Shown here: piece after piece, positions 4,640 through 55,985 of the stretch | How the letters are laid out: the number at the start of each line of letters is the position of its first letter | Numbering within the stretch: the first letter of the stretch is position 1 | IMG/VR virus record: IMGVR_UViG_3300042908_000811 | Location: 1-64,000 of that record | Source: a virus | Lineage: Duplodnaviria > Heunggongvirae > Uroviricota > Caudoviricetes | Reading direction: 5' to 3' (one strand) | DNA: 64,000 nucleotides | The notes under the pieces: generated by a model | Database searches by the model: none | Seen by the model: the letters and a program-made list of their open reading frames with translations, nothing else | What the model was told of the DNA's origin: nothing | Position numbers and translations under genes: made by a program

Positions 4640-5554
4640 ATGTATTTATTTGTCTATAAAACTACACACATCAATGGAAAATATTATATTGGTCGCCATC
4701 AAACCAATGATATAAACGACGGGTATCTAGGATCTGGTAAATGGGTTTCTGGAATAAAAGATAAATTAACTTTATCAAGAGAAATCATCGCAGAAACGAA
4801 TTCAATTAAGGAATTATACGAATTAGAAGAATATTATATAGAAAAATATTGGAATGATCCCTTATGTATGAATATGATTAAAGGATCTAATGGTTATACT
4901 TCAGAGGACAATTTTAGAAAAATCGTAAAAGGAACTCATCCTTTTCAGTCGAGAGAAGATGGAACTTCCTTACAAACGGATCGTGTGAATGCTGGAACTC
5001 ATCATTTGTTAAAAAGAGAAGATGGTTCTTCTTTAACACAAGACAGAGTGAAAGAAGGAACTAATCCTTTTCAGTCGAGAGAAGATGGAACTTCCTTACA
5101 AACTGACCGTGTGAATGCTAGAACTCATCATTTGTTAAAAAGAGAAGATGGAAGTTCTGTTGCATCCGATAGAGTGAAAGAGGGAACTAATCCTTTTCAG
5201 ACGAGAGAAGATGGAACTTCCTTACAACAAGATAGAGTCAATTCTGGAACTCACAATTTTTTAAAAAGAGAAGATGGAACTTCTGTTTCATCAGATAACA
5301 ATCTTAAAAGAGTTGCAAATGGAACTCATAATTTTCTAACAAGATCGGATGGAACGAATTTACAAACCGATAAAGTTGCAAATGGAACTCATCTTTTCCT
5401 ACAAAATAAGGGTTTGGTTCCGTGTTATAATAAACAAGGAGAATACAAACGAATTCCAAAAGAAAAATATCATTCCCAAGTCGGGCTAAAGGAAGATTGG
5501 GAATGGGTGCATAATTTGAGCAAAGAAGGCAAGAGAAGAAAACCTTCGTTTTAA
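4640..5554 (+). CDS. GIY-YIG homing endonuclease (Seg/I-TevI-like) with about 8 tandem 21-aa C-terminal repeats
   Basis: N-terminal VYKTTHINGKYYIGRH...GYLGSGKW GIY-YIG motif; repeated GTHxFxxREDGTSLQTDRV units; lone plus-strand gene in minus block. Confidence 0.7.
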   Translation: MYLFVYKTTHINGKYYIGRHQTNDINDGYLGSGKWVSGIKDKLTLSREIIAETNSIKELYELEEYYIEKYWNDPLCMNMIKGSNGYTSEDNFRKIVKGTHPFQSREDGTSLQTDRVNAGTHHLLKREDGSSLTQDRVKEGTNPFQSREDGTSLQTDRVNARTHHLLKREDGSSVASDRVKEGTNPFQTREDGTSLQQDRVNSGTHNFLKREDGTSVSSDNNLKRVANGTHNFLTRSDGTNLQTDKVANGTHLFLQNKGLVPCYNKQGEYKRIPKEKYHSQVGLKEDWEWVHNLSKEGKRRKPSF

Positions 5555-6230: not shown

Positions 6231-6258
6231 TATTTTACTACAATTTATAGAAAAGTCA
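6231..6258 (-). promoter_or_regulatory. early promoter TTGACT-16-TAAAAT plus conserved leader AGTCTTGTGGTTGG
   Basis: minus strand reads GATTGACTTTTCTATAAATTGTAGTAAAATAGTCTTGTGGTTGGAAC..GAGGAAGCTAAATG. Confidence 0.6.
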
Positions 6259-6444
6259 ATCGTCCTTGTCCAAGTCCCATGCGTATTTTTCTGCATAATT
6301 CAACCGATCCATATGGTCTACAAATTTTTCGCAAAGAGCATACACATTTTTCAGCGAATGAAAATCGTCTCCAGCAAGTTGAGCTTCGAGGTCTGACATC
6401 CTATCGGCATTTGCCACGTAATTTACATAATCCTCAAGCGTCAT
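6256..6444 (-). CDS. small protein 62 aa; near-identical inverted paralog of 49305-49502
   Basis: MTLEDYVNYVANADRMSDLEAQL... vs MTKMTLEDYVNYMANADNMSDLEAQL...; same CAACTGGAGAAACGAAATG leader. Confidence 0.6.
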   Translation of the reverse strand: MTLEDYVNYVANADRMSDLEAQLAGDDFHSLKNVYALCEKFVDHMDRLNYAEKYAWDLDKDD

Positions 6445-6539
6445 TTCGTTTCTCCAGTTGATTTCTAACTATGGGACTATTGTATCTGAACTGACAGGGA
6501 AAGACAAGGTTTTTCTTTCGGGGTTGCCGTAATCATTTT

Positions 6540-6740
6540 TCAAAAAATATCTTTTGAAGATGTTTCCAAAGCTTGAAGTCCATCTTCTTCTGAATCGAAA
6601 TACCCATCCACATAATAATACATTGGTTCTCCATTTTGATGTGTCAAAAACGGTCCGTATGCCCCAATCCAATACTTGCCGTCGGACTCAAACAGCGCAA
6701 CTTCGTTAGTTTCGTTGTGGTATTTTACGAATCTTGACAT
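6540..6740 (-). CDS. small protein 66 aa with cassette-type promoter/leader
   Basis: upstream minus strand CCTTGACTTTCCC..GATACTATAGTCCCATAGTTAGAAATCAACTGGAGAAATCAAATG. Confidence 0.5.
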   Translation of the reverse strand: MSRFVKYHNETNEVALFESDGKYWIGAYGPFLTHQNGEPMYYYVDGYFDSEEDGLQALETSSKDIF

Positions 6741-6974
6741 TTGATTTCTCCAGTTGATTTCTAACTATGGGACTATAGTATCTGAACTGACAGGGAAAGT
6801 CAAGGATTTTCTTTCGGGGTTGCCGTAATTTCGCAATGTTGATTTCTTGGAAGCGTTGATTCGCATTCTTCGATTGCTTTTTGTGTTTTTGAAACAACGG
6901 TGAATGGTAAACTAACAAAAAGATCAATCAATATTATTGCAAAAGACATACCAAATAAAAATGTTGGAGTATCT

Positions 6975-10004: not shown

Positions 10005-10199
10005 TTATACCTCAATTTCGTTTACATACGAAACGTCAATAAAATATCTTGAAGATTCAAGACACAATTTTTCTGCCTTTTCTTTATCAGAAAAGACACC
10101 TTGAACGGAAGCACCCATTCCACGATCTTCTTCCAGAACAACATACAAAACATCAGGTTCTTTTACAATTTTCATTTCAGTCTCCATTTTTCCAACCAC
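10005..10199 (-). CDS. small protein, member of the MKV..V.Y../GVF.SxEKA family
   Basis: MKIVKEPDVLYVVLEEDRGMGASVQGVFSDKEKAEKL resembles 17547-17866 and 51149-51854 ORFs. Confidence 0.5.
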   Translation of the reverse strand: MVGKMETEMKIVKEPDVLYVVLEEDRGMGASVQGVFSDKEKAEKLCLESSRYFIDVSYVNEIEV

Positions 10200-10205
10200 A
10201 AGACT

Positions 10206-10233
10206 ATTTTACTACAATCCACAGAAAAGTCAA
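10206..10233 (-). promoter_or_regulatory. early promoter TTGACT-16-TAAAAT plus AGTCTTGTGGTTGG leader
   Basis: minus strand CGCTTGACTTTTCTGTGGATTGTAGTAAAATAGTCTTGTGGTTGGAAAAATGGAGACTGAAATG. Confidence 0.6.
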
Positions 10234-11456
10234 GCGTTGAGAGGATGATAGGAAAAATGTCTTCCTAAGTTGTGTTCTTGCAAGAATTCTTCTACCTTAA
10301 GAGATCCATATAACGTAATGGTAGTTACAAAAAACAGTTGCATTAAGCGAGATAATTCGTAAGGCGTTATATCTTGTTTTGGTTCGTATACAATCCGAAA
10401 ATTCTTTGTATAGATATTCAAATCACTGATAGGAATATCAGCGGCAGATAGTCTATCACCATCATATTTTTCTTTTACTGTTTCAATCATTGTATGTGAT
10501 ACCTGTCAATAAGTTTATGATAAAAGTCCAATAAAGGACCACAAAGTTCTAACGGAGTTTCTTGGTAATGTTCTTGAAGTAATTCGTGAACATCTGTTAT
10601 GATTAGTTCAGCAAACTTTTCTTCATTGAATTCTGGATGAATACCTCCCCAACCATCATCAACAATAACAGTTGCTTTTTGTTTCAATTCTTCGAATATA
10701 TCAATCATAATCTATATTACTTAGTATTCGAAGTGTAATTCATTTTAAACAAAATAGAAAACAAAAAACTAATTCCCCACATTTGCAACCAACCAACTTC
10801 TTTCAAAATAGTTACCGCAGGAACCAAACAAGAATTCCAAAGTATCATTATAGGATAAGAAAGCAGAAAACTAAAAAATATAGCAACAACAAAAATTCCA
10901 ATTATATTTCCAATTATATTATGTATCATATATTTACCTAATTTAATTATAATCAACGTTCCAATGAAATTTACCCAAAATAAAACAAAATCGTGGAGAA
11001 TCGTACCAGAAAAATTCACAAGCAAAAAATGGTTTGCCTTTCCAAGTATTCCATCCGAAATAATGATTACCATCTTTCATAAGATAAAACATATCTTTCA
11101 ATGATATATTATCAGGATTAAGAATCAGTCTTGTCCATTACTCAATCGACTTTAAGATCATTCAACATATTTAATGACATAATCACATAAACATCATTCA
11201 ACCTTTTCAAGAAGTTTTTTTAATCTTTCATTTTCTTTTTTCAAATCAGTAAGATAATTGCCATATCCATTGGTTACGTGTCTACAAGATTCATTCAAAC
11301 AAATAAAATCTGCTGTTTCCCACAGAACTCCCAAAATTTGAAATTCTTTAGATTGCATGTTCTTTTTAGAAAATTTGTGCATCATTTCTGAAGGAGCAGA
11401 TACTTCCATTAATACCATTGCATTGGTAGAACCACCACATTTTTCACAATTAAACA

Positions 11457-11705
11457 TTATTCAACTCCAAAATGTTCTTTAATCTTTTCGCCTAACCATT
11501 CTCCGTGATAATCATTCTCAACCATTACAGATATACATTCTTGAATAATAAGGTTAGTGAATCTTTCGGAAAATGCAAATGGAATGTACATTCTATCTAA
11601 ATCGCCATATCTGTCTAACTGATCATCAAAACATTCAGTAATAGCAGATATGGTAAGTTTTTTAATTCTTTCGTTCACGGTAAGTTCTTTAATTCTTTCG
11701 TTCAT
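11457..11705 (-). CDS. small protein 82 aa, ...HFGVE family (paralogs 13301-13579, 18162-18386)
   Basis: shared IIQEC/VVQEC/IIEEC core and C-terminal FG(V/I)E/FGVDQ. Confidence 0.5.
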   Translation of the reverse strand: MNERIKELTVNERIKKLTISAITECFDDQLDRYGDLDRMYIPFAFSERFTNLIIQECISVMVENDYHGEWLGEKIKEHFGVE

Positions 11706-12042
11706 TCTTTAACCTATATCTATATGGAATTTCCTTATCAGACATTTTCTTTTCCTTTTCATAAGTCATATTGAATATGTCCTCTTTACAAAGATAATGC
11801 TCTCCTTTAACTCCTGTGATAATAAAATCTCCTTGGCTTACTTCACACCAACCTTCAAGAGTTTTTATTAACCCTTTCCCTTTATAGGAGTTTAAGCAGG
11901 TCGCCAATCCTGCATCAGTTGGATCAGAATATATTCGGTATCCTTCATCATACGCTTCGTGATAGTCAAGTACAGCATTGTGATCTCCGAACGAGAACCA
12001 TTGAACTGCGTCGATTTCTATAGGTTTCTTTATATATTTCAT
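11689..12042 (-). CDS. hypothetical 117 aa; paralog of 6975-7241
   Basis: MKYIKKPIEIDAVQW...TLEG..GDFIITGVKGEHYLCKEDIFNMTYEK. Confidence 0.55.
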   Translation of the reverse strand: MKYIKKPIEIDAVQWFSFGDHNAVLDYHEAYDEGYRIYSDPTDAGLATCLNSYKGKGLIKTLEGWCEVSQGDFIITGVKGEHYLCKEDIFNMTYEKEKKMSDKEIPYRYRLKNERKN

Positions 12043-12384
12043 AATATTACTCGAAAAAAGGGGAATTTATTCCCAAAGAAAACAAATTTGCTTGTTCATT
12101 TGTTTTCCAAATTTCTAACACAAGACTATTGTAAACGAACTCGCAGAAAAAGTCAAGTAGGAGCATCAACCTCAATTGCCCAATGTACTACTTTCCAATC
12201 GCCTAAACAATCTTCAAAAGTATAATTCTCGTCTACGTGGGCTTTTCCAAATTTAGCACACATCTTTTCATACCAAAACGGAAAATAATCTCTACGAATA
12301 TCTTCTTCCGATAAAACCTCTACGATATCAGTATTATTACTTTCATCAAACCAATTTATTTGAAAATACCGCATCTAATTTCCT

Positions 12385-13304: not shown

Positions 13305-13579
13305 TCAATACCAAAAGTTTCTTTGATGTCATCACGAATAGATTTCAGGGCATCATAGGTCCATTCACACGCCATTTCTCCTGCTGCACTATTGCCGCAA
13401 GGTATTCTATAGGTTTCAATCTTATCTATACATTCCTGTACGACAAGGTCGGTGAATTTTTCTAATTCTGAATCATACTGTGTGCTCCAATCAATAACGG
13501 CATCTTGCGGTTTCCATTCCTCGTCCCGCCAGAAAATGAAACCTGCCTTTTCTGCTAATTCTCTAGCTTTAGGATTCAT
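13301..13579 (-). CDS. small protein 92 aa, ...FGIE family
   Basis: MNPKARELAEKAGF...VVQECIDKI...ETFGIE. Confidence 0.5.
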   Translation of the reverse strand: MNPKARELAEKAGFIFWRDEEWKPQDAVIDWSTQYDSELEKFTDLVVQECIDKIETYRIPCGNSAAGEMACEWTYDALKSIRDDIKETFGIE

Positions 13580-14019
13580 TTTACCACCTTTATTTGATAA
13601 CCTAACAAAGATTCAATCTCTGCTACTGTTAATTCTTTTACTTTAGTGGTCTTCTTGAGAAATTCTTCTTCTGTATATTCTACACCATTCAAATACCAAC
13701 AGCGAGTACCATCAGAATATTCAATAGCGGGGCCATCTTCCCGATGAAGATCGCCATTCAAGTACCAATAACGACTGCCTTCATATGATTCAACAGCAGG
13801 ACCATCTTCTCGATGACACTTGCCATTCAAATACCAAGAACGAGTACCATCAGCATGTTCAAAAGCAGGACCATCTATCCGATGACGCTTGCCATTCAAA
13901 TACCAAGCACTAAGACCATTTGCATATTCAATAGCAGGACCATCTTCTCGGTGGTATTTGCCATTCAAATACCAACCACGGTCGCCATTATCAAAGACTT
14001 TTACAGTGTATTCAATCAT
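13576..14019 (-). CDS. MORN-like (WYLNG..HREDGPA) repeat protein, paralog 1 of 4
   Basis: approx 23-aa repeats GxxRxWYLNGxxHREDGPAxEY; C-terminus KELTVAEIESLLGYQIKVVK shared by all four. Confidence 0.65.
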   Translation of the reverse strand: MIEYTVKVFDNGDRGWYLNGKYHREDGPAIEYANGLSAWYLNGKRHRIDGPAFEHADGTRSWYLNGKCHREDGPAVESYEGSRYWYLNGDLHREDGPAIEYSDGTRCWYLNGVEYTEEEFLKKTTKVKELTVAEIESLLGYQIKVVK

Positions 14020-14321
14020 TTTACCACCTTTATCTGATAACCCAATAATGCTTCAATCTCTGCTACTGTTAATTCTTTAGCTTTAAGGGTTTTCTTGTTG
14101 AATTCTTTTTCTGTATATTCTTCGTCGTTCAGATACCAACGACGAGTACCATTAGTAAATTCCATAGCAGGACCATCTTCTCGGTGAAGTTTGCCATTCA
14201 AATACCACCAACGACTACCATTTGAATATTCAATAGCGGGACCATCTTCTCGATGCCGCTTGTCATTCAGATACCACCAACGATCACCATTATCAAAGAC
14301 TTTTACTGTATATTCAATCAT
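14016..14321 (-). CDS. MORN-like repeat protein, paralog 2 of 4
   Basis: same repeats and shared C-terminus; ATGA overlaps. Confidence 0.65.
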   Translation of the reverse strand: MIEYTVKVFDNGDRWWYLNDKRHREDGPAIEYSNGSRWWYLNGKLHREDGPAMEFTNGTRRWYLNDEEYTEKEFNKKTLKAKELTVAEIEALLGYQIKVVK

Positions 14322-14761
14322 TTGACCACCTTTACTGGATACCCTAATAACTCTTCGATTTCTGCTATTGTAAGTTCTTTTGCTTTGAAAGCCAACTTGA
14401 GAAATTCTTCTTCTGTATATTCTTCATCATTCAGATACCAATAACGATCACCATTTGCATATTCAATAGCAGGTCCATCTATCCGATGACGCCTGCCATT
14501 CAAATACCAACAACGAGTGCCATCAATATACTCACAAGCAGGACCATCTTCTCTATGGAGATTGCCATTCAAATACCAACAACGACTACCATCAATGTAC
14601 TCACAAGCAGGACCATCTTCTCGGTGACGATTGCCATTCAAGTACCAATAACGACTACCATCAGCATCTTCAATAGCGGGTCCATCTTCACGATGTCGCT
14701 TGTCATTCAGCCACCAATAACGAGTGCGATTGTCATCAACTTTTACTGTATATTCTATCAC
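14318..14761 (-). CDS. MORN-like repeat protein, paralog 3 of 4
   Basis: same repeats and shared C-terminus. Confidence 0.65.
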   Translation of the reverse strand: MIEYTVKVDDNRTRYWWLNDKRHREDGPAIEDADGSRYWYLNGNRHREDGPACEYIDGSRCWYLNGNLHREDGPACEYIDGTRCWYLNGRRHRIDGPAIEYANGDRYWYLNDEEYTEEEFLKLAFKAKELTIAEIEELLGYPVKVVK

Positions 14762-15078
14762 TTTACCACCTTTACTGCATAGCCCAACAAAGATTCAATT
14801 TCTGCTACTGTTAGTTCTTTTACTTTAGTGGTCTTCTTGATGAATTCTTCTTCAGTATATTCTTCATCATTCAACCACCACTCACGAGTGCCATTAGTAA
14901 ATTCACAAGCGGGACCATCTTCCCGATGGAGATTGCCATTCAAATACCAACAACGAGAACCATTGGCATATTCAATAGCAGCGCCATCTTCTCTATGCAA
15001 TTGACCATTTAAATACCAATAACGATTACCATTATCATTGACTTTTACCGTGTATTCGATCACTTCACCACCTTTCAT
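14758..15078 (-). CDS. MORN-like repeat protein, paralog 4 of 4
   Basis: same repeats and shared C-terminus. Confidence 0.65.
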   Translation of the reverse strand: MKGGEVIEYTVKVNDNGNRYWYLNGQLHREDGAAIEYANGSRCWYLNGNLHREDGPACEFTNGTREWWLNDEEYTEEEFIKKTTKVKELTVAEIESLLGYAVKVVK

Positions 15079-15119
15079 AATATTACTCGAAAAAGGGGGA
15101 ATTTATCCCCCTTAATGAA

Positions 15120-15986
15120 TTACTTTAGATTCAACATTGGGATAGAACTTGATCCCATAGTTGTTTGAGGTAGTTTGCCATCCCATCCCCTTGCAATTTC
15201 ATATTGAACTAATTGAGGACTAGTATTCAACGCTTTAGATTTAGCTTCGATAGCAGTTGCTTCAGCCTCGCCCTTAATTCGTACAGATTCTGCCTCTGCC
15301 CTTGCTACTGCTAGTTTAGATTCTGCTTCACCCTTTGCTTCTTCAATTTTCTTTTGTGCTTCCGCTTTCGCAGTTTGAATTTCGTTTTCTCTCAATAGTG
15401 CCTTTTGAGTTGCTTCTACCTTAGCGTTAATAGCAGCCCTAACAGAATCAGGCAATCTCAATTCACCAATCCAGTAAATTTGAGAGATAGTGAACAATTC
15501 CTTATTTTGTTCTCGTACAATATTTTCAACTTCCTTCATCAATTCCGCCTTGCCTTCGCCATATACATATTCAATTGATTTTGTCGAAGCAACAGAAACC
15601 AGAGCATCTCTTACTTGATTTCTAATGAAAGTATCTGTAATTTCGTCAATACCTCTTCGATAGGTTTGAAAGATATTAGCAACCTTATCAGGAAGAACAG
15701 CATAAGAAATACCAATATCAGCATTGACCGTTAATCCTTCCTTTGTTTGGAAAGAAAACGATTCCTTTTCGTTCCAAGTATAATTTTGTAGATATGTAGG
15801 GAACTTATAAAGTTCTTCGCCAAATCCAATGTAATATCTACCAACTGGTAATACTTGTTCGCTTACACCTTTATCCGTTCCATAAAGATCAATCTTTACA
15901 CCAACCGATCCAGCAGGAACTGAGGAGCAGTTCGACAGAAGAAGAATACCAATAACAACAAAAACGCCAATAACAAACTTAATCAT
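15120..15986 (-). CDS. SPFH/band-7 (stomatin/prohibitin-like) membrane-anchored protein
   Basis: N-terminal hydrophobic anchor with Cys (LLLSNCSS); SPFH-like core; Ala/Glu-rich coiled-coil C-terminus. Confidence 0.7.
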   Translation of the reverse strand: MIKFVIGVFVVIGILLLSNCSSVPAGSVGVKIDLYGTDKGVSEQVLPVGRYYIGFGEELYKFPTYLQNYTWNEKESFSFQTKEGLTVNADIGISYAVLPDKVANIFQTYRRGIDEITDTFIRNQVRDALVSVASTKSIEYVYGEGKAELMKEVENIVREQNKELFTISQIYWIGELRLPDSVRAAINAKVEATQKALLRENEIQTAKAEAQKKIEEAKGEAESKLAVARAEAESVRIKGEAEATAIEAKSKALNTSPQLVQYEIARGWDGKLPQTTMGSSSIPMLNLK

Positions 15987-16192
15987 TTTTCACCTTTTTC
16001 TTTAAAATAAACCCAAGCAACAAAAACAACGTGTCCTACAACAAGGAGAAACGCCCAAGTCATACCTAAAACAACATTAATAGTATTAGCAGAAGAAATC
16101 AAATCTGGTAGAGTGACCCTAAATGAGAAAAAATCTACCAACAAAATCAAAATACTAATGCCAAACCAACGCACAAACTTTTCAAAATTCAT
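15983..16192 (-). CDS. small two-helix membrane protein, possible SPFH partner
   Basis: 69 aa with two hydrophobic segments; ATGA-coupled upstream of the SPFH gene. Confidence 0.45.
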   Translation of the reverse strand: MNFEKFVRWFGISILILLVDFFSFRVTLPDLISSANTINVVLGMTWAFLLVVGHVVFVAWVYFKEKGEK

Positions 16193-16193
16193 C

Positions 16194-16868
16194 TTATTTC
16201 TCCTTTATCAAAAATTTGTTTGAGATCGCCTTAAAGGAAATGCTAGGGTTTTGAATACATTTAAATACCAATCCTTCTCGTTCAGTAATACTATTCAATT
16301 CAGATTTACCTTCGGCATATTTCAACAAGGACTCAATAGAATCAGATATGCCAACTTGTTCAAGAACTGGAACGTGTTTTAATTCTAACGACTCACACAA
16401 ATGCAATCTCTCAATAGAATTATAGTATTCTTGCTTATCAATATCATAGACATCAAAAACATAGAAATCCTGCCCAGAAATCTTGTATGGATTGCCTTGA
16501 ATCGAAGTTCCAATAACTTCTCCTTGAATAGCAATATTCTTTCCAAGTAACTTCAATTTAGATTCCAAATCATACTTCTGACACATTTTCCAGAAAGTGT
16601 TATCATCATTTGGTTTCAGATCCAAATTTCTTGAGCAGACACCGAAATCTCCATCATTATAATAGATGGTACAAGACGATCCGTCCAGCTTTTCTGAAAC
16701 TTCAAAATCATATTCTTTGAAAGATTCAAATTCGTCAACTAGATTTTGAATCCGAGGTTGATCGGTCTTACGAATGAAAGACGGAAACAATCCTTTTATT
16801 TCACCAGCAAGACAAGCAGGAATGGGTGGTTCGTATTTAATAATACCTAGAGGATAAGAAACATCCAA
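16194..16868 (-). CDS. RNA ligase nucleotidyltransferase domain (KxDG motif EKLDGSS); same frame as 16869-17207 across one TGA
   Basis: FEVSEKLDGSSCTIYY motif I; track start is TTG directly after the TGA with no RBS. Confidence 0.6.
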   Translation of the reverse strand: MDVSYPLGIIKYEPPIPACLAGEIKGLFPSFIRKTDQPRIQNLVDEFESFKEYDFEVSEKLDGSSCTIYYNDGDFGVCSRNLDLKPNDDNTFWKMCQKYDLESKLKLLGKNIAIQGEVIGTSIQGNPYKISGQDFYVFDVYDIDKQEYYNSIERLHLCESLELKHVPVLEQVGISDSIESLLKYAEGKSELNSITEREGLVFKCIQNPSISFKAISNKFLIKEK

Positions 16869-17207
16869 TCATTCAAATAACATACTATCTACATTATCTA
16901 ACAGACTTAACGGAAGTAGAAGACCTTGGGATAGAGTACCTCTCAAGCGAACGGTACGCAATCTTTCTCCCTTGATTCCCTCGTATTCTCTTGGTTCATT
17001 ACCTTTTGATAAGAAGGGAGCAATCTCAGTAGGAATAAAACTATCTATCTCGCAATAGATAACAAGATCACCGACGGCATATTTACCCACAGAATCTACA
17101 ACATTCCAACCTTGGATTTTATAAGAACAAATCCTATCAGCACCCTCAATAGGAACAACGTCAAGAACTTTTTGAATCGAAGCAAGTTTTCTCATTTTAG
17201 TCTCCAC
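16869..17207 (-). CDS. N-terminal OB-fold (PheRS/EMAP tRNA-binding-like) module of a DraRnl/Rnl5-type RNA ligase, ending in an in-frame TGA
   Basis: RKLASIQKVLDVVPIEGADRI...GDLVIYCEIDSFIP...LRGTLSQGLLL pattern; stop TGA at 16869-16871. Confidence 0.55.
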   Translation of the reverse strand: METKMRKLASIQKVLDVVPIEGADRICSYKIQGWNVVDSVGKYAVGDLVIYCEIDSFIPTEIAPFLSKGNEPREYEGIKGERLRTVRLRGTLSQGLLLPLSLLDNVDSMLFE

Positions 17208-17225
17208 TTTTTTAACTACAAGACT

Positions 17226-17254
17226 ATTGTAACTGAAGTTTAGAAAAAAGTCAA
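17226..17254 (-). promoter_or_regulatory. early promoter TTGACT-17-TACAAT plus AGTCTTGTAGTT leader
   Basis: minus strand GCTTGACTTTTTTCTAAACTTCAGTTACAATAGTCTTGTAGTTAAAAAAGTGGAGACTAAAATG. Confidence 0.6.
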
Positions 17255-17325
17255 GCGGTCATATTGCTGAATCTCAGCGCCTTCTGCCCAAGCGTGGATA
17301 GGGTCTGCATGTTTGGGTATTGTCA

Positions 17326-17547
17326 TTATTCTCTCTCAATTCTAATTTTCTTTCTTAACTCTAATGAAAAATTATACCCAGATTTTGGCGAGAAATCCTT
17401 TTCAAACATTTCCCCAAGTTTTCTCATAGCATCTAAAGCAAGTTCTTCTGATTCAAAATCTTCTAGGATAAACCTATAGCGTTCGTTATTTCGCAACAAC
17501 ACATTATATGGATCAACCTCAAAATAATATTCAGTATGAATTTTCAT
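17326..17547 (-). CDS. hypothetical protein (likely start MKIHTEYYF at 17547, TAATG overlap)
   Basis: ORF track 17326-17562; internal ATG overlaps upstream stop. Confidence 0.45.
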   Translation of the reverse strand: MKIHTEYYFEVDPYNVLLRNNERYRFILEDFESEELALDAMRKLGEMFEKDFSPKSGYNFSLELRKKIRIERE

Positions 17548-17708
17548 TATTCCACTTCCCATTCTTTAATAATAAATTGACCAGAATCATTTTTCTTTTC
17601 TTCTGGTAATTCATCGATATACTTTTGGGCTTTTTCTCTCGAATCAAAGACTCTATCATAAAAATCTTCAACAGAAAAATCTACATATACTACAACATAT
17701 ACTTTCAT
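17547..17708 (-). CDS. small protein 53 aa, MKVYVVVY.../RVFDSREKAQKYIDE family
   Basis: manual translation; below the 60-aa track cut-off; ATGA overlap with next copy. Confidence 0.45.
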   Translation of the reverse strand: MKVYVVVYVDFSVEDFYDRVFDSREKAQKYIDELPEEKKNDSGQFIIKEWEVE

Positions 17709-17866
17709 TCTACATCCTGTTCTTCAATGACAAAAGCATTCCAATCTTTAAAAAATTCTGGCATTTCGTCGATACATCTCTGAGCTTTTTCCCTTGAATC
17801 AAAAACGCCATAGACGCAATCCTCGTCCTCTATCCACTCCTCATAAACTACGGCATAGACTTTCAT
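17705..17866 (-). CDS. small protein 53 aa, MKVYAVVY.../GVFDSREKAQRCIDE family
   Basis: manual translation; tandem paralog of 17547-17708. Confidence 0.45.
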   Translation of the reverse strand: MKVYAVVYEEWIEDEDCVYGVFDSREKAQRCIDEMPEFFKDWNAFVIEEQDVE

Positions 17867-17910
17867 TGGTCATCGCCAAAATAATCAAACTCCATTTTTA
17901 ATCTTTTCGT

Positions 17911-18165
17911 TCATTTTTCAATACAAAAATGCTGTATAATCTCATCATCTGTTAGTTCGACTGCTTCCATTTCTAAAAATAGAGAAACGTCGTTACCAAT
18001 AAAGCGTTCTTGGCCAACTTCTGAATACTTTTTGGCGGAATAGAGCATACCTGCTCTAAACGCTTCTGCCACAATCAATTCAGCAATCTCAAAATATTCT
18101 TCTTCTGGAAGAATGCCAGTATCGTCACAAATCTTTTTTACAATATTAACGAGTTCGCTGTTCAT
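17911..18165 (-). CDS. hypothetical protein 84 aa
   Basis: ORF track. Confidence 0.5.
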   Translation of the reverse strand: MNSELVNIVKKICDDTGILPEEEYFEIAELIVAEAFRAGMLYSAKKYSEVGQERFIGNDVSLFLEMEAVELTDDEIIQHFCIEK

Positions 18166-18386
18166 TGGTCAACTCCAAAACGTAGTTTGATTTCTTCAGC
18201 AAATCCACGACCAACGAGGTCAATCATCCCTTTTCCTGCTGTGGCATTACTACACACACCAGCACATTCCTCAATAATCAATTCAGCAAATCTTTTAAAT
18301 TCCGGCATGTCCCAGTGACCAACACCGAACATATCAGGAAGATAACCTGCTTGTTTAGCAAGTTCTTTAATCTTTTCTTGATTCAT
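18162..18386 (-). CDS. small protein 74 aa, ...FGVDQ family
   Basis: MNQEKIKELAKQAGY...IIEECAG...RFGVDQ. Confidence 0.5.
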   Translation of the reverse strand: MNQEKIKELAKQAGYLPDMFGVGHWDMPEFKRFAELIIEECAGVCSNATAGKGMIDLVGRGFAEEIKLRFGVDQ

Positions 18387-18842
18387 CTTTTACTTCCCAA
18401 CACCAATGTACAGCAATTTTTCGTTCATTTTTGAACCCTCGGAATATCCTCTATTTCGTTTTTTCTGTTAGTTCGTCGAACACCTCGGATGCAAGAAGAT
18501 TTACTCTCCTGACAATGTCCTCGTAGGATTGCATATTCCCTTTTGGGAGACTGGTCCAGTTACGAATAACCCACAATGCGTGAAGAGCAGGATCTTTCGG
18601 TGGTTTGAACTCTGACATTTTGTACCTCGATTCCAACAGTTAAGTAGAAATATATTCTACTACAAAAAAAGAAAAAAGTCAAGGGGAACGGACACTAATC
18701 CATACTCCAATCCCAATGTACAACAATGAAATCATTTAAACAGTCCTCAAAACAGTAATGCGAATGTCTTCTTCGGATACAGTGGAAATCCATCCAGATT
18801 CACCATCAAATTCGTCGAAGGAATAATATCTCATTAGGTATT

Positions 18843-19157
18843 CTAAGTCAATCCCATTCCAGTAGCATCATATAATTGAGCGTAAATGGGAGAAGCATAT
18901 ACATCATTCTGATTGAATACATTGAAGAATTCTTGTGCTTCTTCCATTGTATCAAAAAAGAATAAACCTCCATTAAGATATTCATCTTTATCAATTTTTG
19001 GTTTCAATGATTCCAAAACAGACTCCCCGATATATGAATCATTGTCATCAAAAGTTAATCCATTATTAATGTAAACAGCAGGTTTGCCTTTTTGAGCAAC
19101 TGCTAGAGAATTGATAGCATTCCAATCAACGTATTCCGGTTTCATCTTTGTCTCCAC
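18843..19157 (-). CDS. hypothetical protein 104 aa
   Basis: ORF track. Confidence 0.5.
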   Translation of the reverse strand: METKMKPEYVDWNAINSLAVAQKGKPAVYINNGLTFDDNDSYIGESVLESLKPKIDKDEYLNGGLFFFDTMEEAQEFFNVFNQNDVYASPIYAQLYDATGMGLT

Positions 19158-19206
19158 GTTTTTTGAACCACAAGACTATTTTACTACAATTTCAGAAAAA
19201 GTCAAG

Positions 19207-19362
19207 TCAAAGAGAACTAACAAACTGACCAATATGGACTTCGTATTCCCTCGATTTCGGTATTTTGTTAAAATATTTTTGCGCTTCCTCAAGCGTCAAA
19301 AAATACTCTAACACCTGTTCAATTTTTTGACCACGCCAAAGTTTGTATACACAATATTCCAT
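19207..19362 (-). CDS. small protein 51 aa (MEYCVYKLWRGQKIEQVLEYF...) with own promoter at about 19380-19425
   Basis: manual translation; TTGACT-16-TACAAT and GGAGACAAAGATG upstream. Confidence 0.4.
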   Translation of the reverse strand: MEYCVYKLWRGQKIEQVLEYFLTLEEAQKYFNKIPKSREYEVHIGQFVSSL

Positions 19363-19626
19363 CTTTGTCTCCACGTTTTTTGAACCACAAGACTATTGTA
19401 ACTGATCTTCAGAAAAAGTCAAGCGTCCCATATTACTTGAGCAGTTGCTTCGTGAGTTTTCTTTTTCTTGGTATCAAAGTAGACAACTTTTCTTAGAACA
19501 GCGGTATGCCCACAACCATCATCAAAATCTTCGTAATAGTATTCAACGACTTTATTTGGTGATCGAGCATAGAAAGGTAAACAGGGTTCAATAGTGTGTT
19601 CAATAACGGTATCTGCAAATTTTAGA

Positions 19627-21695: not shown

Positions 21696-22241
21696 TCAAG
21701 CGTAGATTTTATTTTCATCTTCCGGTAGGGATTCAAGGATTGATGGAATTTCTTCTATTGCTAATGGAGTAAGATTCCACAAATCCATTCCAACATTTAA
21801 TTGTTGACGATTTCCTTTCCATTTACTGTGGAGGTGTCCAAATAGGTTTATCGATCCGTAATGTGATTTGTTCCATGCTCTTAATGGATAATGACACATA
21901 ACATAGTGTTTACCATTAATCTTATGATCTAACAAATCAAATACCCTACCATCAAAACAATCAATAAAATCTTGATGCTTTGTTAAATGTACATCGTGAT
22001 TTCCAGATACGAGACAAAGTTTACCATTAAGGCGTCCTAGGAAATCTACAGTTTCTTTAAGTTTTCCAAAAGAAACATCTCCAAGAATAAAAATTTCATC
22101 GTTCTTAGAAACTTTAGAATTCCAACGCTCAACAATGGTATCATTCATCAATTCTACTGAAGAAAATTGACGAGCATCAGGTTCATATTCTAATATTTTT
22201 TTATGAAACGCATGAATGTCGCTTGTAAAGAATATGCTCAT
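21696..22241 (-). CDS. calcineurin-like metallophosphoesterase (protein phosphatase or polynucleotide 2',3'/3'-phosphatase)
   Basis: SDIH, LGD, GNHD, CHYP, FGHLH motif series; ATGA-coupled to kinase and RNA ligase 1. Confidence 0.7.
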   Translation of the reverse strand: MSIFFTSDIHAFHKKILEYEPDARQFSSVELMNDTIVERWNSKVSKNDEIFILGDVSFGKLKETVDFLGRLNGKLCLVSGNHDVHLTKHQDFIDCFDGRVFDLLDHKINGKHYVMCHYPLRAWNKSHYGSINLFGHLHSKWKGNRQQLNVGMDLWNLTPLAIEEIPSILESLPEDENKIYA

Positions 22242-22654
22242 AGTACCTCGAATAATTCTGAAATATCGTATTGAAATCTTTGCTTCATTTTTTCTACAGT
22301 TTCTTCTGGAACATTATGGATTGATCCAAAATTGTTCTGACAAAGAATTACAGTTGGAATGATATTATACTTCTTAGCAAGTTCAAAATAAGGTTTTAGT
22401 TCTTTCTTGGTTGTGAAGGTATTGGATACAACTACCATTTCACCTTCAGCTAACACTCTATCAGTTTGTTCTTGACACCACTTATGAGCTTGTCTAAGTT
22501 TTGAAGCATCAAAATTATAATTACCATCCGAATCTATAAAATACATATCTGCTTCAAAATGTTCAGAAAAAGGATATGCAAAACTCATATCGCCAGCAAG
22601 TGTACTTTTGGACGAACCTGGCAATCCTCGAATTAAAATCATTCTTTTAGTCAA
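22238..22654 (-). CDS. P-loop polynucleotide 5'-kinase-like protein (T4 Pnk kinase-domain-like)
   Basis: LIRGLPGSSKSTLA Walker A resembles T4 Pnk ILTIGCPGSGKSTWA; sits between phosphoesterase and Rnl1. Confidence 0.6.
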   Translation of the reverse strand: MTKRMILIRGLPGSSKSTLAGDMSFAYPFSEHFEADMYFIDSDGNYNFDASKLRQAHKWCQEQTDRVLAEGEMVVVSNTFTTKKELKPYFELAKKYNIIPTVILCQNNFGSIHNVPEETVEKMKQRFQYDISELFEVL

Positions 22655-23582
22655 GATAGTTCTCCAAAAAAGTACGAGTAAAGTTTAATCGAGATTGTTC
22701 ATCCATTTCAGAAAATACTTCTCTGTTTTCTTTAATATGTCCGACCAAGGGATAGTATTCTTCATCAATCTTACTCAAGTCACCATTTAACAAAGAATCA
22801 ATATTTTGCTTACGAGCAAACAATTTGTTAATCAAGTAATATGGAGATTTTAATTTAAACGATTCCCCATCTTTTGTGTATGCAACATAACCTTCATGTT
22901 TTACCTTCTTAACTCTTTCCTTTAATTCGCCTAGAGTAGTATAAGTTGGAACTGGAACATTCCACAATCCCAACATATAATATTCACGATCAAATTCAGA
23001 ACTACAATACCAATCCAATCCATAGTCAACCATCTGAGAAATTGACGTGGAATGGGATATTTTATCATTATAACCATTATCTCTTTGACCCAAGAAATAC
23101 ACTCCTTCTTTTTCTGGAATAATATGAGGATCAGAAGAATGACAAATTTCAAACATAAAAGTAGTATTATGAATGAAATTCTTCTCAGGAATTGCTTTTA
23201 ATATCATTTCCCTTGCTAACTTAGCATAATCAGAATCCAAAGATCCAGTAGTTGCAACTACAACACCATCTTTATACTTTGATGCCGTTGCCATAAATCC
23301 ATTATACTTCTTGATTGCTAAGACCTTTTCATCATCAGATAATACTGGAGAGTTCTTTTCTATTCCGTAATTATAGATTTTATCGAAAGGATGAACAATA
23401 ATGTTGAAATCTTTATCTACTACCAGACCACGACACTTTTCAAGATAACGATTCCAAAGCCCATCAAAAAAGACTTTTCTTTTATATTTTAATACAAATA
23501 AATCAGTATAGGATTCAGATTTTTTCATCTGAACAAGATTAGAATTGTTTTCTACATATTCTTTGAGTTGTGACTGTAACAT
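22647..23582 (-). CDS. rnlA: RNA ligase 1 (T4 RnlA/gp63-like)
   Basis: KCRGLVV, KKYNG (motif I), HEGYVAYTKDGESFKLKS match T4 Rnl1 ECRGIMF, KEDG, IEGYVAVMKDGSHFKIKS as recalled from memory. Confidence 0.75.
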   Translation of the reverse strand: MLQSQLKEYVENNSNLVQMKKSESYTDLFVLKYKRKVFFDGLWNRYLEKCRGLVVDKDFNIIVHPFDKIYNYGIEKNSPVLSDDEKVLAIKKYNGFMATASKYKDGVVVATTGSLDSDYAKLAREMILKAIPEKNFIHNTTFMFEICHSSDPHIIPEKEGVYFLGQRDNGYNDKISHSTSISQMVDYGLDWYCSSEFDREYYMLGLWNVPVPTYTTLGELKERVKKVKHEGYVAYTKDGESFKLKSPYYLINKLFARKQNIDSLLNGDLSKIDEEYYPLVGHIKENREVFSEMDEQSRLNFTRTFLENYLD

Positions 23583-29403: not shown

Positions 29404-29866
29404 TTTTGAGTAATTTTGATATTTTAAATAGATTTAATTCTGCGTAACTTAATTTCGATCTAAGTTCGCCATTAATAACAGTTCCACGGGAATCAAGAAC
29501 TTGAGTTATTTGTTTGAGCAGACATTCCGTAAGAATTATCATTTCTTCTTTTTCAAAGGATTTCATATATTCACACGTAAAAAAGGAGGGATATTTGGTA
29601 ATAAGGAATCCCTCCTGAACCTCACCTAACTCAAGCGGCTAGGGCAAATTTTGAATCATTTGCAATTATTGTATTTACTTCTTTGACCGGGATATCCCAA
29701 TCCTAACGACTTCAGTATTGCCGAGCGCATATAAACTATTTACTACCACGTCGAAACTGATCTTCCCCATCAAAAGCATACTATTCATTAGCTCTTACTA
29801 GATATAAACTTGATCAGTTATTATATCGTTCGCTTTCTCGGTTATAGTAACCTTCCTAGTATGCTT

Positions 29867-29898
29867 TTGGTGGAGAAGGCGGGAATCGCACCCGCGTC
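29867..29898 (-). other. isolated tRNA 3' fragment (T-arm plus acceptor 3' strand plus CCA) with no 5' half
   Basis: minus strand GGACGCGGGTGCGATTCCCGCCTTCTCCACCA; no complementary 5' acceptor upstream; inside a 650-bp ORF-free gap. Confidence 0.5.
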
Positions 29899-30079
29899 CG
29901 CAATAACTTTCGTTTATATGTTTACGCTGTTATAAACTTTCAACAATTAAACCAAACAAATATGCGACGGACCCAATCATACCAAGAAAAAATATCAAAA
30001 GAATAGTTAATAATACATTTTTTGTTAAATCTTCTAGCATAATTGAGTCCCCGCAATAGTTTATATTAAACTATTTATA

Positions 30080-49304: not shown

Positions 49305-49502
49305 ATGACGAAAATGACGCTTGAGGATTATGTAAATTACATGGCAAATGCCGATAACATGTCAGATCTCGAAGCTCAACTTCCTGGCGACGATTTTCAT
49401 TCGCTGAAAAATGTGTATGCTCTTTGCGAAAAATTTTTAGACCATATGGATCGGTTGGATTATGCAGAAAAACACCCATGGGACTGGGACAAGGACGCTT
49501 GA
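49305..49502 (+). CDS. small protein 65 aa; near-identical inverted paralog of 6256-6444
   Basis: protein identity about 85 percent over 60 aa. Confidence 0.6.
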   Translation: MTKMTLEDYVNYMANADNMSDLEAQLPGDDFHSLKNVYALCEKFLDHMDRLDYAEKHPWDWDKDA

Positions 49503-49559
49503 CTTTTTCTGAGATTGTAGTATCCTATAGTTGTAGTCAAAACCAACTGGAGAACGAAA
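49498..49559 (+). promoter_or_regulatory. cassette copy with TTGACTTTTTCTGAG -35 (minus-block subtype)
   Basis: CTTGACTTTTTCTGAGATTGTAGTATCCTATAGTTGTAGTCAAAACCAACTGGAGAACGAAAATG. Confidence 0.6.
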
Positions 49560-53420: not shown

Positions 53421-53495
53421 TTCGGGATCGTCTAATTGGTAGGACACCAGCCTTTGAAGTTGTGAATCGTGGTTCGAGTCCACGTCCCGAAACCA
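53421..53495 (+). tRNA. tRNA-Gln (anticodon TTG; one mismatch in anticodon stem)
   Basis: acceptor TTCGGGA/TCCCGAA, T-arm CGTGGTTCGAGTCCACG, CCA encoded; manual fold. Confidence 0.5.
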
Positions 53496-53503
53496 AATTT
53501 TAT

Positions 53504-53578
53504 GGTGGTTATGATGTAATGGTAGCACCCCTCTCTGTGAAAGAGGAAGCACGGGGTCAGAACCCGTTGCTCACCCCA
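53504..53578 (+). tRNA. tRNA-His (anticodon GTG) with extra G(-1) opposite discriminator C
   Basis: CCTCT-CTGTGAA-AGAGG anticodon arm; CCA encoded; weak D-stem. Confidence 0.5.
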
Positions 53579-53580
53579 AA

Positions 53581-53656
53581 GCATCTGTGACAGTGATGGT
53601 TCATGTACCGGACTGAAAATCCGAGGATGTTGGTTCGATTCCAACCGGATGCACCA
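53581..53656 (+). tRNA. tRNA-Phe (anticodon GAA)
   Basis: acceptor GCATCTG/CGGATGC, loop CTGAAAA, T-arm GTTGGTTCGATTCCAAC, CCA. Confidence 0.65.
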
Positions 53657-53768
53657 ATTTAGGTCTAACCGAAAGGCGACCTTTGATACATAACCTTGTT
53701 GGCATTATGCCTAAGCAATAACAAGTGTCCTAAAACGACCGGCGAGCGTTCACTGTATCAAGAATTTT

Positions 53769-53843
53769 AGTCGGGTAACTCAGAGGCAGAGTGACGCATT
53801 TACACTGCGTAAGTCGAGATATCGTAATTCTCCCCGACTACCA
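53769..53843 (+). tRNA. tRNA-Val (anticodon TAC)
   Basis: acceptor AGTCGGG/CCCGACT, D ACTC/GAGT, ACGCA-TTTACAC-TGCGT, CCA. Confidence 0.65.
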
Positions 53844-54060
53844 TTTATGCCCCTGTAGTGTAATGAATAGCACGCAATGCTACGGACATTGTAGAGAGGG
53901 TTTGAATCCTTCTGGGGGTGCATATTTTATGGAGGGTTATCTAGCCGGGGATGCTAGCACTGCCTTGAAAGCAGTTGGAACCGAAAGGTCAGGGGATCAA
54001 TACCACCAACCCTCCGCAGTTTTAATTCCTTATAAATATTTCCTTTATGAGGAGTCATAT

Positions 54061-54762
54061 ATGTTTAAACCAACTTATCTTTATGTTAAGACCCATAATA
54101 AAACAGGGTTGAAGTATTTTGGAAAAACCGTTTCGAAAGATCCGCAAAAATATCAAGGTTCTGGAAGTTATTGGAAAAAACATATTAAAAAACACGGTTA
54201 CGATGTAACTACGGAAATAATTGGGCTCTTTAATGATGAAAAAGAATGTAAAAAAGTTTCTACGAAGTTTAGTTCAGAAAACGATATTGTTAAATCTAAA
54301 AAATGGGCAAATCTAAAAGAAGAAACATTAGATGGCGGTTGGGACCATATAGGTAAAGATCATTTTACGCATCAATATCCGCATTTAAAAGATATGAATT
54401 CAAAACTTTTAGAAAAAAGAAAAAGCGATGAAAATTTTGATGCGGAATATAAAAAAGCAATATCAAGAGGGATAAACAATAAATCTGAAGAAGAAAGACG
54501 AGATTGGAATAAAAAAATATACGAGAGTAAAGTAAAGAATAATTCTTTTAGTGCAGATCATCTACAATCGCAAGAAGTTATACAAAAACGAAATACAACA
54601 TTTAAATTGATTGGACACCAAAAGGGCGAAAAAAATTCTCAATATGGAACTTGTTGGGTTTGGTGTGAAAAAGAAGGTAATAAAAAAATAAAGAAAGAAT
54701 TATTACAAGAATACTTGAATAAAGGTTGGGAAAAGAAATATATTCCAGGATATAACAAATAG
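54061..54762 (+). CDS. GIY-YIG homing endonuclease (Seg-like) inside the tRNA cluster
   Basis: MFKPTYLYVKTHNKTGLKYFGKT...YQGSGSYWKKH; GAGGAG RBS; track ORF 53791 starts upstream across tRNA-Val. Confidence 0.6.
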   Translation: MFKPTYLYVKTHNKTGLKYFGKTVSKDPQKYQGSGSYWKKHIKKHGYDVTTEIIGLFNDEKECKKVSTKFSSENDIVKSKKWANLKEETLDGGWDHIGKDHFTHQYPHLKDMNSKLLEKRKSDENFDAEYKKAISRGINNKSEEERRDWNKKIYESKVKNNSFSADHLQSQEVIQKRNTTFKLIGHQKGEKNSQYGTCWVWCEKEGNKKIKKELLQEYLNKGWEKKYIPGYNK

Positions 54763-54847
54763 AAGATAATATCAGATGGTTCTGATACCTGCTTGGAAAG
54801 CAGTGTGATCCGAAAGGGTTGCAGTTCAATTCTGCTGTCTTCTGCCA
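54761..54847 (+). tRNA. tRNA-Ser (anticodon GGA), long variable arm
   Basis: acceptor AGAAGAT/GTCTTCT, loop TTGGAAA, variable arm GTGATCCGAAAGGGTTGC, CCA. Confidence 0.6.
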
Positions 54848-54893
54848 AATTTATATTTAAATAAATAAATATTTATTTTTACGGAACAAATAA

Positions 54894-55130
54894 ATGAAAA
54901 CGTATAAAGAGTTTATAGAAAATATTTTTGAATCCAAAAATAGTATTCCAGTTGATAAAGGAGTTCTCCACACTAGAGATAGTTTATCTAATAAAGTACA
55001 AAAATTTGCCCCGGAAACCACCGACGATGAAAAATGGAACAAAGTTAAAGCAATAGAACATTTGAGAAAAGGGAATATGTTAACAGCAAAATATTATTTA
55101 CATAAAATTGGAATCAAAGATAAAATTTGA
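54894..55130 (+). CDS. hypothetical protein 78 aa
   Basis: ORF track. Confidence 0.45.
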   Translation: MKTYKEFIENIFESKNSIPVDKGVLHTRDSLSNKVQKFAPETTDDEKWNKVKAIEHLRKGNMLTAKYYLHKIGIKDKI

Positions 55131-55160
55131 CTTTACTTTTTGTAAAAACGTAGTAAGATA
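55127..55160 (+). promoter_or_regulatory. promoter TTGACT..TAAGAT inside the tRNA cluster
   Basis: TTGACTTTACTTTTTGTAAAAACGTAGTAAGATATAAAAATAGTC. Confidence 0.5.
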
Positions 55161-55174
55161 TAAAAATAGTCAAT

Positions 55175-55260
55175 GGAAAGTGAACCAGTCGGGGTGCTGG
55201 GACTACCTGCTAAGTAGATCGTACCTGCCAAGGTATTTGGATCGAGACCAACGCTTTCCG
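55175..55260 (+). tRNA. tRNA-Ser (anticodon GCT), long variable arm, no encoded CCA
   Basis: acceptor GGAAAGT/GCTTTCC, D CCAG/CTGG, loop CTGCTAA, variable arm TACC-TGCCAA-GGTA. Confidence 0.55.
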
Positions 55261-55269
55261 AAATTTAAC

Positions 55270-55352
55270 AGCGATGTGGTGGAATGCATACACGTTAGTC
55301 TTAGAAACTAATGCCTTCGGGATTGAGAGTTCAAGTCTCTCCATCGCTACCA
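55270..55352 (+). tRNA. tRNA-Leu (anticodon TAG), long variable arm
   Basis: TTAGT-CTTAGAA-ACTAA, T-arm GAGAGTTCAAGTCTCTC, CCA. Confidence 0.65.
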
Positions 55353-55359
55353 ATTTATT

Positions 55360-55431
55360 GCTCCTATAGTAGAAATGGTAGAACACATTCTTGGTAAGAA
55401 TGAGGCGCAGGATCGTAACCTGCTAGGAGCT
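55360..55431 (+). tRNA. tRNA-Thr (anticodon GGT), no encoded CCA
   Basis: acceptor GCTCCTA/TAGGAGC, CATTC-TTGGTAA-GAATG. Confidence 0.6.
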
Positions 55432-55442
55432 AAAAATTTAAT

Positions 55443-55516
55443 GTGCGCGTGACCGAATGATTAGGTAGTTGGCTGCAACCCTTCTTATGCAGGTTTGAGT
55501 CCTGTCGCGCACTCCA
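55443..55516 (+). tRNA. tRNA, anticodon uncertain (possibly Cys GCA), irregular anticodon stem
   Basis: acceptor GTGCGCG/CGCGCAC, T-arm GCAGGTTTGAGTCCTGT, CCA. Confidence 0.45.
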
Positions 55517-55522
55517 AGTTAT

Positions 55523-55600
55523 CTGGATGTAGCTCAGTTTGGTCAGAGTTCTCGGTTTGGAACCGAGTTGTCGCAGGTTCGAATCCTGCCATCCAGACCA
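55523..55600 (+). tRNA. tRNA-Pro (anticodon TGG)
   Basis: GCTCAGTTTGGTCAGAGT D-arm, CTCGG-TTTGGAA-CCGAG, GCAGGTTCGAATCCTGC, CCA. Confidence 0.7.
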
Positions 55601-55816
55601 ATTTTAAATCTGAAGAAGATAGCACAACCGATAGACCTTGAAGGTTAGTGTATAAGCAGTGGGTGGGGTCAATAAATACCACCTTGATCGTGGTTCTCGT
55701 ATGAGATAGGATAAAATCCTCTGGCGACGATCCTCAAAAAAGTGCTTTACTTTTTAAATTAAGTAAGTATAATAGTTCTATAGTTTGGAACTGCTCTTTA
55801 AAAAGTTGAAAAATAA

Positions 55817-55901
55817 TGGTTGCGTGGTGGAACTGGTATACACAAGTGCCTTAAGAGCATTTGCCTTCGGGATTGAGAGTTCGAGTCTCTCCGCAACTAC
55901 C
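55817..55901 (+). tRNA. tRNA-Leu (anticodon TAA), long variable arm
   Basis: AGTGC-CTTAAGA-GCATT, variable TGCCTTCGGGATTGA, CCA. Confidence 0.6.
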
Positions 55902-55909
55902 AATTTTAA

Positions 55910-55985
55910 TGCACCGTTCGTCTAGTGGTTTAGGATTCCAGATTTTCACTCTGGGGAGAAGGTTTCGAATACCTTACGGTGTACC
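55910..55985 (+). tRNA. tRNA-Glu (anticodon TTC)
   Basis: CCAGA-TTTTCAC-TCTGG, T-arm AAGGTTTCGAATACCTT, CCA. Confidence 0.65.

Follow-up and report, generated by a model that had tools for sequence, protein, structure and literature searches.

A private in-frame TGA in an Rnl5-type RNA ligase gene of a Caudoviricetes phage points to a nonsense change or a sequence error, not to recoding

A predicted Rnl5-type RNA ligase gene of a virus of the class Caudoviricetes (Duplodnaviria; Heunggongvirae; Uroviricota) is interrupted by a single in-frame TGA, and this interruption is a private nonsense change, or an error, in a known kind of gene and not a case of recoding. The gene lies on the minus strand of the 64,000-nucleotide stretch of DNA analyzed here (positions 1 to 64,000 of IMG/VR record IMGVR_UViG_3300042908_000811), hereafter referred to as the window. 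We consider it probable, though well short of certain, that the TGA is real and represents a very recent loss-of-function allele of the ligase gene.

The two open reading frames concerned, 16869-17207 and 16194-16868 (both minus strand), share one frame and their sole break is the TGA at 16869-16871, as the preliminary description had stated and as the window sequence confirms. Their arrangement is not a chance juxtaposition. In-frame TGAs with 70 or more open codons to either side occur only twice in the 64-kb window, and the other one, at 7573 (plus strand), sits opposite a minus-strand gene. The likely start codon of the ligase is the ATG at 17193-17195 and not the GTG at 17207, because this GTG falls inside the Shine-Dalgarno stretch GTGGAG and an intact orthologue (P0001) begins with MRKL; the joined product therefore comprises 333 aa, which corrects the 337 aa given earlier. 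The Shine-Dalgarno GGAG itself is found at 17202-17205, 6 nt 5' of the ATG. Based on PF21189 and on the alignment with the Naegleria gruberi enzyme NgrRnl, codons 1-108 (16872-17195) encode most of the N-terminal OB module, including R2 and D51, and this 108-aa fragment is the product if the TGA, which is codon 109, terminates translation. Reading resumes after the TGA with TTG and continues in the same frame to the natural stop TAA at 16194-16196. Codons 110-333 (16197-16868), delimited by PF09414 and the same alignment, encode the last part of the N module, with K120, and the nucleotidyltransferase domain in full, and carry R148, motif I K169 (16689-16691), D171, E226, motif IV E307 and motif V K322. 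Inspection of the sequence revealed no GGAG-type ribosome-binding site 5' of the TTG that follows the stop, which agrees with the earlier view that the downstream frame is not an independent gene. On the other hand, the TGA does not mark the boundary of two domains, as had been implied, since it is located inside the N module (NgrRnl residues 1-126) and 5' of K120.

The family of the interrupted gene was determined by searches with the joined protein carrying an X at the stop position. Pfam matches comprised PF21189 (PHA02142 OB fold; residues 4-96, E=1.4e-25) and PF09414 (RNA_ligase; residues 164-323, E=1.6e-32). The NCBIfam equivalog TIGR02306 (RNA_lig_DRB0094) scored 201.4 bits, above its cutoff of 151.15, and was covered over profile positions 2-341 of 341. 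Similarly, NgrRnl (5COT) aligned end to end (ligase residues 1-333 with NgrRnl 4-338, E=1.4e-84), with the N-terminal OB module of the ligase colinear with the NgrRnl N module. The motifs K169-L-D-G, E226, E307-G-L-V and F-K322 are all present, and the C-terminus lies 11 residues past motif V with no further C-terminal domain. Judging from these matches, the joined 333-aa protein is a full-length Rnl5-type RNA ligase, and the Pfam, TIGR02306 and NgrRnl results fully support the initial assignment to the DraRnl/Rnl5 type, which had been based on an OB module followed by a nucleotidyltransferase with the motif I sequence EKLDGSS. The Rnl5 family is defined by an N-terminal OB module joined to a C-terminal nucleotidyltransferase domain and has phages among its hosts (PMC7261155, PMC1807946).

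The nine NgrRnl active-site residues that contact ATP or metal, with roles as described previously (PMC7261155), are all kept in the ligase: Arg4 (R2 in the ligase), Asp53 (D51), Lys121 (K120), Arg149 (R148), Lys170 (K169), Asp172 (D171), Glu227 (E226), Glu312 (E307) and Lys326 (K322). Among them, Arg4, Asp53 and Lys121 are N-module residues that position the pyrophosphate leaving group of ATP (PMC7261155), and the TGA of the window allele parts R2 and D51 from K120. By homology with Rnl5 ligases of known sealing biochemistry (PMC1807946, PMC7261155), the ligase is predicted to be an ATP-dependent enzyme that requires Mn and seals 3'-OH/5'-PO4 nicks whose 3'-OH strand is RNA, via a lysyl-AMP intermediate. 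A single uninterrupted chain of about 330-390 aa, as expected of an Rnl5 member, is encoded in near-identical contigs but not in the window, where codon 109 is TGA. Because the same gene is uninterrupted in those contigs, we regard the window copy as a disrupted allele of an Rnl5 member.

How codon 109 reads in near-identical genomes was established by an exact-sequence protein look-up and three fetched loci (L001, L002 and L003), on which the allele counts rest. The 333-aa protein P0001, recovered by homology search, is identical to the window product except for a glycine in place of the stop. In all three loci, which lie on contigs from JGI metagenomes 3300042292 and 3300043775, codon 109 is GGA (Gly). 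Window position 16871, the first base of this codon, is T on the coding strand of the window and G in the near-identical contigs, and throughout the 1,002-nt ligase gene this base is the sole difference between the window and the contigs encoding P0001. The intact 333-aa protein was found in 23 contigs, while the 108-aa (P0121) and 224-aa pieces were found in exactly one contig of 74,599 bp, presumably the one from which the window comes. The preliminary description had named reads with a sense codon at 16869-16871 as evidence against its reading, and this is in effect what we found, as the contigs carrying GGA are 99.95-99.97% identical to the window over 14-17 kb. It had likewise named orthologues arranged as two separate genes, each with its own ribosome-binding site, and no such arrangement occurs among the 120 best homologues: all of them are single polypeptides of 332-388 aa with a sense residue at column 109 of the alignment, and 108 of the 120 have glycine there. 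Taken together, the aligned sequences indicate that the TGA is a one-step G-to-T derivative of a conserved glycine codon and is private to this sequence.

The quality of the assembly around the gene can be judged from the same relatives. The window differs from L003 at 5 positions over 14,125 bp and from L002 by 8 substitutions and 1 indel (9 differences) over 17,127 bp. Over 21 kb compared with the two relatives there are only substitutions and one intergenic indel, with 0 frameshifts. Where both relatives can be compared with the window (roughly 10 kb), it shows two further private differences, and both are neutral: at 14169 CCC has become the synonymous CCT, and the change at 21650 is intergenic. 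Neutral private differences and the lack of frameshifts are the pattern of a distinct natural haplotype and not of a noisy assembly. In the comparison with L002, four substitutions and one indel cluster within 29 nt at 12031-12059, at the start of ORF 11689-12042, while only four other positions differ in 17 kb; this cluster points either to local hypervariability or to a fault in one of the two assemblies. Matches to the ligase were found in 354 cultured-phage records, in 325 of which a single aligned stretch spans at least 80% of the protein. The nearest cultured-phage homologue, from Limnohabitans phage DC31, is only 52% identical, and a megablast search of the cultured-phage collection with 4 kb of the window gave no match, so that this collection holds no close sequenced relative.

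Several lines of evidence speak to how TGA is read in this genome. Among the 133 coding-strand ORFs that reach 60 aa or more, TGA is the commonest stop (61/133), in many cases within ATGA overlaps, and gene lengths agree with standard-code gene calls in relatives. No tRNA with a UCA anticodon was found in the 64-kb window among the 23 genes reported by ARAGORN and two extra Rfam hits. Global recoding was thus rejected, as TGA is a normal stop and only one credible in-frame TGA occurs in 64 kb; the preliminary description had reached the same view of a global reassignment. A downstream RNA structure that might promote readthrough, proposed there as something to look for, was not found: the 90 nt 3' of the stop have a minimum free energy of -12.3 kcal/mol against a shuffle mean of -13.45 (z=+0.37), that is, they fold no better than shuffled sequences, and a permissive Rfam scan (E<=1) of 15000-18500 gave no match, SECIS included. 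Selenocysteine insertion is unsupported, with no SECIS or other Rfam match near the stop. Nor is the stop codon kept in the related genomes. As these near-identical genomes hold a sense codon in the same context, selection cannot have built a readthrough signal here. Of the three options initially put forward, programmed readthrough or recoding is therefore left unsupported (the relatives have GGA, and neither an RNA structure nor a suppressor tRNA was found), while recent pseudogenisation and sequence error are both still standing.

The most likely reading is a genuine nonsense allele. A single G-to-T transversion would have turned the conserved Gly109 codon GGA into TGA in one genome, translation would end after 108 residues with the OB module incomplete, and useful quantities of the catalytic domain would not be produced. 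The phage would persist because the Rnl5 ligase would be accessory, with a second, Rnl1-like ligase and end-healing enzymes also encoded. Three points here are inferences: the T is a true base, the shortened protein is inactive and the phage tolerates the loss. The event appears to be very recent, since there is no secondary decay and the nine active-site residues are intact, and loss of the Rnl5 ligase is plausibly tolerated because the Rnl1-like ligase, a kinase and a phosphoesterase are encoded 5 kb upstream. Should reinitiation at the TTG yield the downstream part, the product would lack most of the N module and would probably be a poor enzyme. DraRnl with its N module deleted (NΔ126) keeps about 10% activity (PMC1807946) and the corresponding NgrRnl-ΔN keeps 4% (PMC7261155); the deletion abolishes lysine adenylylation while a nick that is already adenylylated can still be sealed (PMC1807946, PMC7261155), and it is because lysine adenylylation fails that the N-less enzyme is poor. 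There is a slim chance that the TGA allele is real without being null, with low-level decoding of UGA by tRNA-Trp or TTG reinitiation supplying enough ligase; if true, the window would hold a natural down-tuned or two-chain Rnl5 variant.

Less likely than a real nonsense allele, and on balance doubtful, is a consensus error from sequencing or assembly, in which case the true codon in the phage would be GGA and the gene would be undamaged. The allele is known from one assembly only, a singleton set against 23 contigs with the intact protein, nothing but this one substitution mars the gene, and oxidative damage during library preparation is known to leave G-to-T changes. However, the assembly is otherwise clean over the 21 kb compared with the two relatives, its other private differences are neutral as real SNPs should be, and substitution errors are rare in a consensus at normal coverage. 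Functional readthrough of the UGA, programmed or tolerated, by which full-length ligase would still be made, for example via the phage tRNA-Trp(CCA), is very unlikely. UGA is the leakiest stop in bacteria and the phage does carry its own tRNA-Trp (59731-59804, plus strand), in which manual reading reveals a U11-A24 Watson-Crick pair, the same state that the Hirsh mutation, a UGA suppressor, produces in E. coli tRNA-Trp. This feature is not diagnostic, as Watson-Crick 11-24 pairs are common in tRNAs, and in the phage tRNA-Trp it is probably one of these common pairs and no evidence of suppression. Against readthrough stand the sense codon found in the same context in near-identical genomes, the unremarkable folding of the downstream 90 nt with no Rfam match, and the base after the stop, a U, which in E. 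coli makes a strong termination context. Moreover, tryptophan would be placed where 108 of 120 homologues have glycine, and with 61 of 133 ORFs ending in TGA efficient suppression would be harmful.

A functional split gene, in which the 108-aa OB fragment and a 224-aa catalytic fragment produced by TTG re-initiation (UGA-UUG) would form a two-chain ligase, has an even smaller probability. Termination-reinitiation is conceivable where the stop adjoins the TTG, and both annotators of the contig encoding the 108-aa and 224-aa pieces called two genes. Yet the TTG is a weak start that lacks a ribosome-binding site, the allele is one base away from an intact gene, and no split at this point occurs among the 120 closest homologues or in the 325 of 354 phage records mentioned above. 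In addition, the break would separate R2 and D51 from K120 within the N module, residues whose NgrRnl equivalents act jointly on the ATP gamma-phosphate (PMC7261155). Reassignment of TGA to glycine (code 25) or tryptophan (code 4) in the phage or its host is so improbable as to be nearly negligible. The alignment of the TGA with a conserved glycine does match the code 25 meaning, but glycine is one of the few residues with codons a single step from TGA. The stop usage, ATGA overlaps and standard-code gene lengths described above, the single credible in-frame TGA in 64 kb, the lack of a UCA tRNA and the GGA of the relatives all argue against it.

The ligase is the first gene of a three-gene unit, the rest of which spans 15096-16192 on the minus strand. 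A sigma-70-like promoter is located at 17226-17254 (minus strand), with the -35 element TTGACT at 17254-17249, a 17-nt spacer and the -10 element TACAAT at 17231-17226; it matches at 10 of 12 positions and is the best in the region. The ligase gene is followed by an ORF for a 69-aa hydrophobic protein (15983-16192, minus strand), by a gene for a Band_7/SPFH protein (15120-15986, minus strand; PF01145, E=2.8e-25) and by a terminator-like hairpin with a subsequent T run (15111-15096, minus strand). The ligase promoter lies in one of four minus-strand copies of a promoter/leader cassette of about 60 nt, at 10173-10262, 17193-17282, 19143-19232 and 19360-19449, which precede ORFs starting near 10187, 17207, 19157 and 19374, respectively. 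The cassette elements follow the order TTGACT...TA(A/C)AAT...AGTCTTGT(A/G)GTT...GGAGAC...ATG, where the element ahead of TA(A/C)AAT reads GCTTGACTTTTT... and an A-run stands between AGTCTTGT(A/G)GTT and GGAGAC. These cassettes probably mark co-regulated and likely early transcription units. Just upstream of the ligase promoter are two tandem 53-aa paralogues (MKVY.VVY...FDSREKAQ; 17547-17866, minus strand), for which a weak DUF7336 assignment exists in related contigs. On the other side of the unit, at least 4 tandem paralogous genes of 101-147 aa with MORN-like YWYLNG..HREDGPA repeats occupy 13576-15078 (minus strand), adjacent copies being about 80% identical in DNA.

A second RNA-repair set of overlapping reading frames is found 5 kb upstream of the Rnl5 ligase (21696-23582, minus strand). 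It consists of an Rnl1-like RNA ligase (22647-23582; PHROG 562, E=1.2e-45) with KYNG, EGYV and FKLK motifs, a 138-aa P-loop polynucleotide-kinase-like protein (22238-22654; AAA_33; PHROG 2071/505, of which 505 is polynucleotide kinase) and a 181-aa metallophosphoesterase (21696-22241; PHROG 547, E=1.3e-53; Metallophos_2). The Rnl1-like ligase has no Pfam hit and its direct match to T4 Rnl1 (2c5u) is weak. The window also contains a tRNA array at 53421-59884 (plus strand) with 23 genes identified by ARAGORN and two more Rfam tRNA hits. One of these, at 53505-53575, reads manually as tRNA-His (GUG), and the other (56789-56867) is tRNA-like but unusual: the D arm is nearly missing, the variable region measures 20 nt and the anticodon loop carries UCU. 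Together, the second repair set and more than 23 tRNA genes make a tRNA-repair context with an accessory Rnl5 ligase plausible, by analogy with T4. A permuted two-piece tmRNA of alphaproteobacterial type is present at 29540-29989 (minus strand; RF04321, 104.8 bits; RF01849, 68 bits), with the tag peptide ANDSKFALAA according to ARAGORN, and hints at an alphaproteobacterial host.

Other observations concern the wider window and a related ligase locus. A 304-aa homing-endonuclease-like ORF (4640-5554, plus strand; PHROG 314 / 12324) lies on the strand opposite to its neighbors. Two repeats were inferred indirectly from the comparison with L002: a segment of about 215 bp of which two copies lie far apart and in opposite orientation (6237-6450 and 49308-49522, about 92% identity) and a 92-bp direct repeat (6442-6533 and 6738-6829, 296 bp apart, about 95% identity). 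In a 2,529-bp contig from JGI 3300059473, a related Rnl5 gene seems to be intein-fractured at the conserved KTDQxRIQNL motif. The predicted protein (P0122) opens with the C-terminal half of an intein (...ILVHN|C) fused to the C-extein, and a 336-aa ORF without Pfam hit lies between P0122 and a 186-aa upstream piece. It is possible that this locus combines a split intein with a homing endonuclease.

Rnl5 ligases, their occurrence in phages and spontaneous nonsense alleles have all been described before; phage members of the DraRnl clade were noted when the clade was first defined (PMC1807946). For annotation, the two ORFs should carry a single label, that of a disrupted gene for an Rnl5 ligase (a pseudogene, or possibly a sequence error), instead of being called two genes or a recoding event, and stop-codon recoding in this phage lineage should not be argued from the window. 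What may merit attention is a phage rich in RNA-repair functions and tRNAs, with two ligase families, a kinase, a phosphoesterase, more than 23 tRNAs and a permuted tmRNA, together with the intein-fractured Rnl5 gene of a relative.

Among known systems, NgrRnl (PDB 5COT and the 6VT series) is the structural exemplar of Rnl5, and the ligase shares its order of OB module followed by nucleotidyltransferase domain with nothing past motif V. In contrast to the eukaryal NgrRnl, the window ligase is phage-encoded and its activity is predicted only, and where NgrRnl has a glycine in a linker segment aligned with codon 109, the window copy has TGA. Similarly, the window gene matches the model TIGR02306, to which Deinococcus radiodurans DraRnl (DRB0094) belongs, over its full length and above the curated cutoff, and no feature beyond the nonsense codon sets it apart, as a member of this type, from DraRnl or from phage homologues such as that of Aeromonas phage 44RR2.8t. 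The RNA-repair functions of T4, Rnl1 and Pnkp, counter host anticodon nucleases and are accessory, being dispensable on permissive hosts. Like T4, the window encodes an Rnl1-like ligase; a P-loop kinase and a metallophosphoesterase come after it, but both are separate small proteins with folds different from Pnkp, and the Rnl5 ligase is placed in a transcription unit apart from the Rnl1-like set, in a putative tRNA-repair context. With programmed UGA readthrough, as in the A1 protein of Q-beta, the window shares a UGA inside a frame with a clearly coding downstream part. However, programmed sites are conserved and extend a complete protein, whereas the TGA of the window is a sense codon in relatives and breaks a conserved domain. 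It is the natural amber and opal nonsense alleles of phage populations that the window case resembles, behaving as a spontaneous opal mutant.
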